A DNA stretch of 64,000 nt, taken from the NCBI RefSeq assembly GCF_013315695.1, contig NZ_CP054353.1, one strand, 5' to 3'. Shown here one piece after another: positions 56,749-58,744 of this stretch. Positions within the stretch are counted from its first letter, which is position 1; the number at the start of each line of letters is the position of its first letter. Origin of the DNA: Escherichia coli (GTDB lineage: Bacteria; Pseudomonadota; Gammaproteobacteria; Enterobacterales; Enterobacteriaceae). Both the position numbers and the translations under genes were made by a program. The notes under the pieces were generated by a model. That model saw only the letters and a program-made list of their open reading frames with translations. It had not been told where the DNA came from and ran no database searches.

Positions 56749-57399
56749 TTATGCGAAAACCCGTTCGAGAATTTGCCAGTGACTGGTCACTTTGCCGTCA
56801 GCAAGCGTAAAGCGCGGGTCGTCCTGCTGGTGCTCTGCCGGTAGCGCAATAACTTGCATACCCGCCGCTTTTGCCGCAACCACGCCATTGAGCGAATCTT
56901 CAATCACCAGGCAAAATTCTGGCTCTTGACCTGTCATCAATGCGGCGGTGAGAAAAATCTCCGGATGCGGTTTGCCTTGCGCCAGCCCTTCGGCAGAAAT
57001 CACGACGGAGAAATAGTGGCGCATATTCAGCGTGCTGAGAACATTATCTATCTGCCGCTGCGGTGAAGATGACGCCACCGCCAGTGGAATATTGTGCTGA
57101 TGCAGGTGATTGAGTAATTCATATACCCCCGGCAATGGCGCAGGTTTTAGCCTGATTCGCCGGGCGACTTCTTCCACTATCGCATCATGCACCTGCCGGA
57201 GATTGTTGTCCGGGAGAGAATGGCGTTGATGCAACTTGCGTAAAAAGATAGTGACTGGCATACCGGTAAAAGGATCGAAATCTTCACGTTGCAGGGATAA
57301 GCCGTAATTGCGAAAGTAGTATTCGCACTCCACTTCTCGCCACACCGGTTCCGAATCAACAAGCACGCCATCCATATCAAAGATAACTGCTGCAAACAT
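56749..57399 (-). CDS. HAD-superfamily (subfamily IA) sugar-phosphate phosphatase / phosphomutase-like hydrolase
   Basis: 216 aa; N-terminal DMDGVL motif I. Confidence 0.78.
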   Translation of the reverse strand: MFAAVIFDMDGVLVDSEPVWREVECEYYFRNYGLSLQREDFDPFTGMPVTIFLRKLHQRHSLPDNNLRQVHDAIVEEVARRIRLKPAPLPGVYELLNHLHQHNIPLAVASSSPQRQIDNVLSTLNMRHYFSVVISAEGLAQGKPHPEIFLTAALMTGQEPEFCLVIEDSLNGVVAAKAAGMQVIALPAEHQQDDPRFTLADGKVTSHWQILERVFA

Positions 57400-57479
57400 A
57401 GTTATTCCTTCAGATAAAAAAGCGCCATATCTGAAAACAGGCTTTCAGATATAGCGGAAATAATTGATGCAAATGGCAT

Positions 57480-58037
57480 TTATTCCAGGTTGGCATGGAA
57501 CTGCCACAGCTCATGCATATTGATTTTTCTCTTACCGATTAATTCCAGGGCAACGATGTCCCCAAGCAGCAATAAAGATTGCTCGAAAAGAGAGGTCATC
57601 GGCTGAATGGAGGGGATTTCAGAAGGTAAGTTGAGTTTGGTTTTTACACCGATGCGTACAAAAAGGTCGCTATACGCTTTCATACTGCTTTCGGGGTTTG
57701 CACCAATATGCACAACGCTTGCATGAAAGCTTTTCGCTTTTCTGGCAATGCCGAGGGGAAACATGCTCTCACCGCTTCCGGAACCCACGATAAGCAGATC
57801 GCGCTCGGTAATGGCAGGCTCCGTAATTTGCCCGACAACGTAGGTTTTAATGCCCATATGCGCCAGCCGTTTTGCCATTGCCTGCAATGACAACAGCACC
57901 CGGCCAACGCCGACAAAAAAGACGTTCTCTGCCGCTTCGACCATTTCAATTAAGCGTTCAACCTCATCGGCGCTGATATTACCCAGCGTGGCGCGTAGTT
58001 CAGCCAACACCTTTTCCTGATTAGTCTGGTAACTCAT
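57480..58037 (-). CDS. SIS-domain sugar-phosphate isomerase (6-phospho-3-hexuloisomerase-like)
   Basis: 185 aa; SIS motif FFVGVGRVLLSLQAMAKRL...LLIVGSGSGES. Confidence 0.75.
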   Translation of the reverse strand: MSYQTNQEKVLAELRATLGNISADEVERLIEMVEAAENVFFVGVGRVLLSLQAMAKRLAHMGIKTYVVGQITEPAITERDLLIVGSGSGESMFPLGIARKAKSFHASVVHIGANPESSMKAYSDLFVRIGVKTKLNLPSEIPSIQPMTSLFEQSLLLLGDIVALELIGKRKINMHELWQFHANLE

Positions 58038-58744
58038 TGCTGGCCTCCTGACTGTGCCAGACCTTCACTCACATGGCGATCCAACTGCGTTTTATTGTCA
58101 GCAAGCGTCGCGCCTTTAATAAACAGCCCGGTGCTGCCAAGTACCAGATTATTCGCGCCCGCGGCGATAAGCCCTGGGATCGAGGCAAAAGAAACCCGAC
58201 CATCGACCTGGATGGCGACGCTCGCATCTAACCCGCAAATTTTCTCTCGCAGGTTACGCACTTTTTCCATGGCATAAGGCACCTGTGTCTCATTTTTATC
58301 CCCCGCAAAGCCCGGATTAATCAACATCAACAAAACGTAATCCAGCGAAGGCAGAAGGTAATCCAGCGACGTTAAACTGGTGGCAGGATTTAACGCCACG
58401 CCAGCTTCAACATTGTGTTTTTTAATGAGATTGACCAGTCTGTCAGGGTGTAACGACGTCTCATAGTGAAAGGAAACTCGCTGCACGCCAATCTCGAGAA
58501 CCTGCTGGATAAACCACTCGTTATTCATCGACATAATGTGGATATCAAAAGGCAGGTTTGTCGCTTTACGTAACTGCTTAATCGTCTCCAGCCCCAGCGG
58601 CATACTGGGGCTGAAAGCGCTATCAATGAGATCAATATGCAGGGCATCGACGCCAATCTCCTCCAGCGCTTTTACCGCATCGCTCAAATTGAGCAAATCC
58701 GCGCACATCAGCGACGGAGATAAAACAATTTTCGGGGCAGCCAT
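58034..58744 (-). CDS. Ribulose-phosphate 3-epimerase family protein (Rpe/AlsE-like ketose-phosphate epimerase)
   Basis: ORF 58034..58819; start set at MAAPKIVLSPSLMCADL (58744) after AAGAAGGAA. Aligns to Rpe: SPSLMCADL, HIDLID, NPATSL, LINPGFAG, VDGRV. Confidence 0.8.
   Translation of the reverse strand: MAAPKIVLSPSLMCADLLNLSDAVKALEEIGVDALHIDLIDSAFSPSMPLGLETIKQLRKATNLPFDIHIMSMNNEWFIQQVLEIGVQRVSFHYETSLHPDRLVNLIKKHNVEAGVALNPATSLTSLDYLLPSLDYVLLMLINPGFAGDKNETQVPYAMEKVRNLREKICGLDASVAIQVDGRVSFASIPGLIAAGANNLVLGSTGLFIKGATLADNKTQLDRHVSEGLAQSGGQQ

Follow-up and report, generated by a model that had tools for sequence, protein, structure and literature searches.

A conserved epimerase-isomerase gene pair in a rare polyol phosphotransferase island of Escherichia coli

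Between the convergent genes dtpB and rsmJ, a 64,000-nucleotide stretch of Escherichia coli DNA (contig NZ_CP054353.1 of assembly GCF_013315695.1; hereafter the window) carries an accessory island of about 8.9 kb (50095..59019). Three genes on its minus strand, encoding an Rpe-family sugar-phosphate epimerase (58034..58744), a SIS isomerase (57480..58037) and a HAD phosphatase (56749..57399), converge on a seven-gene phosphotransferase system (PTS)/dehydrogenase operon on the plus strand (50487..56584). The locus raises the question of whether these three genes are a module of their own, with a separate promoter and regulation distinct from that of the transporter operon, as an earlier note on this DNA had claimed, or whether they serve the same pathway as the operon that they face, and which substrate they would then process.

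The island is a horizontally acquired, DeoR-controlled PTS polyol catabolic locus, rare in E. coli but of a known kind and already annotated. For identical genomes, RefSeq has the same three minus-strand coding sequences and names them 'ribulose-phosphate 3-epimerase', 'hxlB 6-phospho-3-hexuloisomerase' and 'HAD family hydrolase'. What was newly found is the conserved pairing of the epimerase and SIS genes with polyol PTS systems, the predicted operator cassettes shared by the two convergent units, and the terminator-like structure between the SIS and HAD genes. We consider it fairly probable that, within one polyol-PTS island of about 8.9 kb, the three genes serve as the arm that processes sugar phosphates and do not form an independent module; this degree of confidence extends to the mechanism set out below.

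Conserved pairing of the epimerase and isomerase genes

The open reading frames and the RefSeq coding sequences agree on the positions of the three minus-strand genes, including a 4-bp overlap in which the ATG of the SIS gene and the TGA of the epimerase gene are joined as ATGA, and profile searches bore out the family assignments made for all three products in the earlier note. The epimerase (236 aa; RefSeq WP_000729929) matches PF00834 over residues 8-205, the whole barrel (3.3e-50). The SIS protein (185 aa) matches PF01380 and lies above the HxlB equivalog cut-off of TIGR03127 (172.4 bits against 160), and its best solved relative is Bacillus subtilis YckF (1m3s, 4.6e-34, 120.9 bits), with which it shares the motifs GSGSGE, QPMxSLFEQ and HANLE. 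A GmhA-type heptose isomerase, the possibility that the earlier note had held up against its own assignment, was rejected: no GmhA model matched, and the best matches were to HxlB, to HxlAB and, weakly, to KpsF/KdsD. Judged by sequence, the protein belongs to the 6-phospho-3-hexuloisomerase (PHI) family, for which at most the conversion of D-arabino-3-hexulose-6-phosphate into fructose-6-phosphate can be predicted. Its RefSeq name probably claims more than is known and misleads, since the subfamily would lie outside formaldehyde fixation.

To place the pair in a wider context, 80 loci were fetched from one-genome-per-species contigs and relatives of all ten island proteins were located in them. 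Homologues 60-78% identical to the E. coli SIS protein occur in other Enterobacterales and in many Firmicutes, and in 79 of the 80 loci the SIS gene is directly preceded by a gene of the Rpe family, the exception being a contig that ends there. This adjacency supports the proposal, already made in the earlier note, that the epimerase and the PHI-like isomerase act together on a ketose phosphate. No gene for 3-hexulose-6-phosphate synthase (HPS; HxlA, PF00215-type) was found among the ten island genes or within 10 kb on either side in nine related loci annotated with Pfam. The unusual feature of the system is a PHI-type isomerase that is uncoupled from HPS and paired, across phyla, with a divergent Rpe-like epimerase.

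The surroundings of the pair follow a small number of arrangements, and in most loci they include genes for a PTS of the mannitol family and for a dehydrogenase of polyol phosphates. In the commonest of them (46 loci; Enterococcus is an example) the epimerase, SIS, MtlD-like, EIIA and EIICB genes form, in this order, a single operon next to a divergent DeoR gene, whose product is 43-51% identical to that of the island; both the MtlD-like enzyme and the EIICB score above mannitol-type model cut-offs. The second arrangement, found in six loci from Ewingella, Yersinia and Izhakiella, reads EIIA-(HPr)-epimerase-SIS-SDR-EIICB, where SDR stands for a short-chain dehydrogenase/reductase. The E. coli-type arrangement (five loci: Salmonella, Superficieibacter and three Firmicutes) combines the pair with SDR, EIICB, EIIA, a second kind of MtlD-family dehydrogenase and HAD genes. 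Five further loci contain an EIICB relative together with a dehydrogenase match that lies under the coverage filter, hence no type was assigned to them, and 18 loci, several Clostridia among them, gave no PTS match.

Other settings of the pair were noted alongside these. In two of the loci without a PTS match, from Lachnospiraceae/Blautia (L089 and L091, positions 8300-16200), the genes form a conserved block, PfkB - epimerase - SIS - DUF4432 - lyxose isomerase - ABC sugar transporter, in the neighbourhood of which ROK kinase, Zn-dependent dehydrogenase or class II aldolase genes occur. This block is a non-PTS home of the pair and may be the best lead to its substrate. In Klebsiella michiganensis (L005 and L006, 10558-12135) the epimerase-SIS pair, divergent from a DeoR gene, is followed by IS3-family transposase remnants, in a region that opens with a phage-type integrase gene and beside an unrelated PTS/aldolase cluster. 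The pair looks like a decayed or transplanted copy in this species, and an association with PTS and aldolase genes that had looked new was not used, the IS3 remnant following the pair. Enterococcus pallens (L014) and Enterococcus sp. 665A (L022) carry a second, divergent set 3.5-5.8 kb upstream of the pair (EIIA 46-49%, MtlD-family protein 24-25% and SIS protein 33% identical), possibly a paralogous system.

Predicted promoter cassettes and the SIS-HAD spacer

The 262-bp intergenic region upstream of the epimerase gene contains a predicted promoter cassette on the minus strand (58761..58845), recognized by motif search, by inverted matches to the PTS-operon promoter and by an alignment of six sequences. 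It consists of a CRP-like site at about 58829-58845 and of operator elements at 58788-58805 and 58761-58777, the first of which overlaps the predicted -10 hexamer TATTAT (58783-58788). A homologous cassette, likewise predicted, precedes the PTS/dehydrogenase operon on the plus strand (50319..50401), with a CRP-like site TGTGA-N6-TCTCA at 50319-50334 and operator elements at 50359-50375 and 50385-50401, and the two promoter regions match each other as inverted repeats.

The two promoter regions, ahead of the SDR and the epimerase genes, were aligned for E. coli, Salmonella enterica subsp. diarizonae and Superficieibacter. All six, from three genera, are alignable over about 110 bp and display one architecture, in which a CRP-like xxGA-N6-TCxCA is followed by ATGCGTTTTTxTGCGCATA, containing the likely -10, and then by GCAAAAAxxxGCA. 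The cassette comprises four TGCR elements spaced by about one helical turn, and the CRP-like sites of E. coli are centred about 60 bp upstream of the predicted starts. Allowing up to two mismatches, the 17-nt operator motif AYRYGCAAAAACAYGCA has five matches in the window, against 0.31 expected, all of them in the promoter regions of the two island units. Of 45 matches in the other 79 loci, which include Firmicutes with the motif in this position, 36 lie at most 355 bp ahead of the epimerase gene, where 0.86 would be expected. The motif is present in 34 of the 55 loci with a DeoR protein at least 40% identical to that of the island, and in none of the 25 loci without such a protein.

A generic sigma-70 scan gave 13 promoter-like sites, against 15.7 in shuffled sequence, and the minus-strand sequence preceding the epimerase gene had none; in view of this lack of excess, the call of the epimerase promoter draws on cross-species conservation. 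Of the separate epimerase promoter claimed earlier, a promoter-like region is retained as a prediction, which the scan did not recover. The further claim that its regulation is distinct from that of the transporter operon runs counter to the homology of the two promoters: with a CRP-like site and a DeoR-type operator in each, membership of one regulon is likelier than separate regulation. The simplest reading would be a single DeoR-type repressor governing both units, with the promoters, the operator and the CRP sites all predicted. A weak terminator-like hairpin was also seen on the minus strand just downstream of rsmJ (58897-58931), where it overlaps a third, weaker and degenerate copy of the operator motif (58915-58931); it may shield the epimerase promoter against read-through from rsmJ.

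The spacer between the SIS and HAD genes contains an intrinsic-terminator-like hairpin and U-run (57413..57456, minus strand); the stem, at 57456-57423, measures about 14-15 bp, and CUUUUUUAU comes after it. It is the top-scoring terminator-like site of the region, and the minimum free energy of the 80-nt spacer is -22 kcal/mol (z = -4.2). A hairpin and U-run of differing sequence are found at the corresponding position in the other E. coli allele, in S. diarizonae and in Superficieibacter, the pattern expected of a conserved function, and a terminator is predicted on these grounds. No convincing promoter for the HAD gene was recognized by eye in the 80-bp spacer, and the operator motif was not found there. 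Given the terminator-like hairpin that precedes it, the HAD gene would be expressed at a low level and through read-through, probably by read-through alone in enterobacteria.

The HAD protein (216 aa; PF13419/PF00702) is a putative HAD-IA sugar/polyol-phosphate phosphatase resembling HxpB (YniC). It scores 188.8 bits against the HxpB model NF008087, marginally below the cut-off of 191, matches PDB 1te2 at 3.5e-35 and possesses HAD motifs I-IV (FDMDG as the DxD motif, SSS, K and EDS). At 30% identity or more, every one of the five E. coli-type loci has a HAD gene and the remaining 75 have none, a distribution indicating that it goes with the E. coli-type PTS/dehydrogenase operon and not with the epimerase-SIS pair; in the three Firmicutes loci of this type it lies directly 3' of the second MtlD-family dehydrogenase gene, on the same strand. 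With this distribution, and a terminator-like hairpin between the SIS and HAD genes, the picture of the three genes as one simple unit is not supported. Partial matches to the bifunctional mannitol-1-phosphate dehydrogenase/phosphatase model NF046057 were observed for both the island MtlD-family protein (76.6 bits) and the HAD protein (84.6 bits), and the MtlD-family and HAD genes, adjacent in the Firmicutes versions, resemble a split form of that polyol-forming enzyme.

Proposed role and competing explanations

In the scheme proposed here, the DeoR-family repressor of the island would bind the four TGCR operator elements flanking the -10 of both promoters, and the two convergent units would switch on together, each with a CRP-like site near -60. 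The PTS would deliver a polyol phosphate, to be oxidized by the SDR and/or the MtlD-family dehydrogenase to a non-glycolytic ketose phosphate. The presence of an extra epimerase and isomerase is the reason for supposing that this product is not fructose-6-phosphate. The latter two enzymes would act consecutively, converting the ketose phosphate into a 3-hexulose-6-phosphate-type intermediate and then into fructose-6-phosphate, and the HxpB-like HAD enzyme, as a low-level product of read-through, would hydrolyse accumulating polyol or ketose phosphate. For this last step we infer, as the earlier note did, a relief or overflow valve, which is plausible for an HxpB-like enzyme encoded behind a predicted terminator. 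Mannitol is an unlikely substrate of the E. coli island, since both its EIICB (506 against the MtlA cut-off of 589) and its MtlD-family protein (151 against the M1PDH cut-off of 368) score under mannitol-specific cut-offs. A full-text literature search returned no functional study of this gene set.

Several points weigh against this scheme. The promoters, operator, CRP site and terminator on which it draws are predictions. The counts over the 80 loci are not phylogenetically independent. The commonest context is a mannitol-type one, and if mannitol were simply converted into fructose-6-phosphate there, the need for an epimerase-SIS pair would be unexplained. Finally, the HAD proteins encoded in Firmicutes loci of the E. 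coli type share only 32-36% identity with that of E. coli, which makes their orthology uncertain.

It is conceivable, if unlikely, that the pair works as a two-enzyme 'carbonyl-walk' 4-epimerase turning a tagatose-6-phosphate-type ketose into fructose-6-phosphate. A shift of its carbonyl from C2 to C3 by the PHI-like enzyme would yield a 3-hexulose-6-phosphate, an analogue of ribulose-5-phosphate with one more hydroxymethyl group; the Rpe-like enzyme would invert this compound at C4, and the PHI-like enzyme would bring the carbonyl back to C2. Circumstantial support comes from the near-universal pairing, from dehydrogenases of MtlD-like or SrlD-like type that are interchangeable between operons and both present in E. 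coli, and from the occurrence of the pair in Lachnospiraceae with lyxose isomerase, PfkB kinases and class II aldolases. On the opposite side stand the phosphate loops of the epimerase, which differ from those of Rpe, and, as a caveat only, the fact that Salmonella diarizonae, which bears the island, is dulcitol-negative. Stereochemistry and phenotypes (dulcitol in S. diarizonae, polyol patterns of enterococci) did not single out a substrate and serve as caveats only. If true, such a walk would be an undescribed and widespread route bringing rare hexitols and ketoses (galactitol, D-altritol/talitol, tagatose) straight into glycolysis. It would bypass tagatose-bisphosphate aldolase and give PHI a new function in physiology, apart from formaldehyde metabolism.

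A helper set for pentitol or pentose-phosphate use is improbable. A pentitol PTS and its dehydrogenases would here yield ribulose-5-phosphate or xylulose-5-phosphate, the epimerase would be an extra ribulose-5-phosphate 3-epimerase boosting flux, and the SIS protein an accessory pentose-phosphate isomerase. True Rpe structures are indeed closest to the epimerase (1e-37 to 1e-31), and the matches to PDB Rpe structures span 1e-37 to 1e-24. Its H36, D38, H69 and D181 line up with the HxD, DxHLM and VDG motifs of solved Rpe, the Met position is also kept, and H36, D38 and D181 are invariant in an alignment of 80 subfamily members. The Enterococcus orthologue passes the Rpe 'subfamily' model NF004076 (174.8 against 165), and Listeria pentitol PTS operons carry copies of rpe and rpi. 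The E. coli epimerase, however, lies under both Rpe cut-offs, equivalog (TIGR01163, 183.2 against 212.6) and 'subfamily' (161.1 against 165), and the whole subfamily departs from solved Rpe in the same alignment, with FSPSMPLG for the substrate-lining motif FVPNxTxG, PGFAxD (PGFAGD in E. coli) plus a 3-aa insertion for PGFGGQ, and VDGRxS for VDGG. Motifs of the PGFGGQ and VDGG type hold the substrate phosphate in Rpe and AlsE structures, and because both are changed, the epimerase likely acts on a substrate other than ribulose-5-phosphate. In addition, the partner isomerase is PHI-type and not RpiA/RpiB, so strict a pairing would be unexpected for mere duplicates of housekeeping steps, and in the commonest context both transporter and dehydrogenase resemble hexitol (mannitol) types.

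There is equally slender reason to assume an AlsE-like route, in which allitol or D-altritol would give rise to D-allulose (psicose)-6-phosphate and the epimerase alone would form fructose-6-phosphate, the SIS protein having a separate job such as aldose/ketose isomerization. The matches to AlsE are significant (structure 3ct7, 8e-30; NF007266, 7e-43), and the PGFA motif and the loss of the second Gly of VDGG are features that we take to resemble AlsE. Nevertheless, the score is far under the AlsE equivalog cut-off (146.7 against 271), and from its sequence the epimerase is neither a canonical Rpe nor a canonical AlsE. This route would also leave unexplained the constant presence of the isomerase and, in E. 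coli, the 4-bp gene overlap, and to our knowledge the lyxose-isomerase context of the Lachnospiraceae does not yield psicose.

Much less probable is a tetritol route, in which erythritol or threitol phosphate would be oxidized to erythrulose-4-phosphate, epimerized at C3 by the Rpe-like enzyme and isomerized by the SIS protein to erythrose-4-phosphate. Such a route needs one dehydrogenase, one epimerase and one isomerase, which is the content of the minimal operons, and the longer beta7 loop and the Gly-to-Arg change of the epimerase could bring phosphate binding closer, as would suit a shorter substrate. The transporter and dehydrogenase of the commonest context nevertheless score as mannitol-type, and we know of no tetritol PTS.

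An autonomous three-gene operon, regulated apart from the transporter operon, is also very hard to reconcile with the data. The genes do lie on the opposite strand, behind a 262-bp upstream region of their own and with a repetitive element between the units, but the promoter-operator cassettes of the two units are homologous and conserved in three genera, a terminator is predicted inside the supposed operon, and the same genes form one operon with the PTS in Firmicutes. Lastly, formaldehyde fixation or detoxification of the ribulose monophosphate (RuMP) type, suggested by the name hxlB and drawn on as an analogy in the earlier note, was rejected as most improbable: the SIS protein passes the HxlB equivalog model, but no HPS/HxlA partner was found nearby, either among the island genes or in those related loci that carry annotation, and the context is that of a polyol PTS under a DeoR-type regulator.

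The island and its relation to known systems

The island to which the three genes would contribute a sugar-phosphate processing arm is delimited by homology, in agreement with the placement between dtpB and rsmJ given in the earlier note. Sequence shared with island-free E. coli genomes breaks off at about 50094 and is picked up again at about 59019, and in the island-free strain K-12 DH1 the dtpB-rsmJ gap measures 48 bp. The breaks in homology lie within dtpB and rsmJ, a few bases short of their 3' ends (50094-50100 and 59007-59019), and the last codons and stop codons of both genes therefore come from the island. Carriers make up 16 of 5,426 complete E. coli genomes, and the G+C content of the left half of the island drops to 38-47%. 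The same island occupies the same insertion site in Salmonella enterica subsp. diarizonae, and Superficieibacter has a closely related gene set. Comparison of two E. coli alleles indicates purifying selection on the epimerase, SIS and HAD genes (dN/dS 0.08-0.25). These alleles are mosaic when the window is compared with E. coli DSM 103246: positions 50500-55000, from the SDR to the MtlD-family gene, are 99.6-100% identical, and positions 55000-58500 (HPr, GldA, repetitive element, HAD, SIS and epimerase) are 94-98% identical, a divergence similar to or above that of the chromosomal flanks. This suggests a recent recombination or sweep confined to the left half.

The plus-strand operon comprises genes for the SrlD-like SDR dehydrogenase (50487-51296), a mannitol-family EIICB (51324-52790), EIIA (52787-53215), the DeoR regulator (53256-53954), the MtlD-family dehydrogenase (53972-55144), an HPr-like protein (55147-55434) and a GldA-like protein (55493-56584). 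It is separated from the convergent HAD gene, as had been noted before, by a repetitive extragenic palindrome/bacterial interspersed mosaic element (REP/BIME; 56590..56745) with inverted REP arms at 56637-56654 and 56690-56707, the sole part of the island with thousands of matches in E. coli genomes (positions 6481-6645 of the query). Within it (56615-56697) the Rfam model ES036/CssrF scores 42.9 bits, above the gathering threshold, and naRNA4 falls below its own. Both models look REP-derived, and the matches probably reflect the repeat and not a specific small RNA gene. The Rfam search of the island returned no riboswitch or leader, and REP-derived families in the BIME only.

Taken together, the epimerase-isomerase pair accompanies polyol PTS systems in bacteria ranging from Firmicutes to Enterobacterales, and the locus offers a testable regulon model, in which one DeoR-type operator, conserved across phyla, is duplicated on two convergent units. 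The putative catabolic capability marks a few E. coli lineages, Salmonella diarizonae, avium-group enterococci (E. avium, E. raffinosus, E. pallens and E. malodoratus were recovered here) and many halophilic bacilli. Knowing the substrate would close a gap in polyol metabolism, and a new way of epimerizing ketose phosphates might come to light.

Among known enzymes, B. subtilis HxlB/YckF, encoded in the hxlAB genes of the RuMP pathway, has the family, length and core motifs of the island SIS protein. The latter differs in having no HxlA partner and in being paired with an Rpe-like epimerase, usually alongside a polyol PTS, and its subfamily, whose members are 60-78% identical, stands apart from YckF, the match to which is much weaker (120.9 bits). 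E. coli Rpe and AlsE have the PF00834 family and the catalytic His/Asp positions in common with the island epimerase, and differ from it in the substrate-lining and phosphate-loop motifs. E. coli HxpB (YniC) is the best family and structure match of the HAD protein, the gene for which lies instead in an accessory island, behind a predicted terminator. The analogy with L-ascorbate pathways drawn in the earlier note found no counterpart: no member of the Ula/Sgb families (UlaD/SgbH, UlaE/SgbU, UlaF/SgbE) is present among the island proteins, and UlaE/SgbU belong to a fold family different from that of the Rpe-like epimerase. In allose-type pathways, such as E. coli als and the D-allose cluster of Listeria, an Rpe-like epimerase and an isomerase are likewise attached to an uptake system. 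Their isomerases, however, are RpiB-type and the substrate is an aldose, whereas the island has a PHI-type isomerase with polyol-phosphate dehydrogenases upstream.

The commonest context described here corresponds to the operon SUB0285-SUB0289 of Streptococcus uberis, which was recorded as comprising rpe-like, phi-like, mtlD-like and mannitol-type PTS genes in a remark at the level of annotation (PMC2657157), the one mention that the literature search returned. It shares the epimerase-isomerase pair with the island and likewise combines it with PTS genes of the mannitol family and an MtlD-like dehydrogenase gene. Unlike the island, it forms one operon and is devoid of SDR, HAD and GldA/HPr genes, and the island dehydrogenase is 21-26% identical to that of operons of this type, as measured on the fetched Firmicutes loci. 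The island has the gene content of a DeoR-controlled PTS polyol operon, with EIIC/B/A, a polyol-phosphate dehydrogenase, a DeoR regulator and a shared operator motif to which binding of the regulator is predicted. E. coli mtl and srl (gut) likewise possess mannitol-family EIICB/EIIA, MtlD-family and SrlD-like SDR dehydrogenases and, in srl, a DeoR-type repressor. From these systems the island differs in that its EIICB and MtlD-family protein fall under the mannitol cut-offs, and in adding an epimerase and an isomerase to the set.

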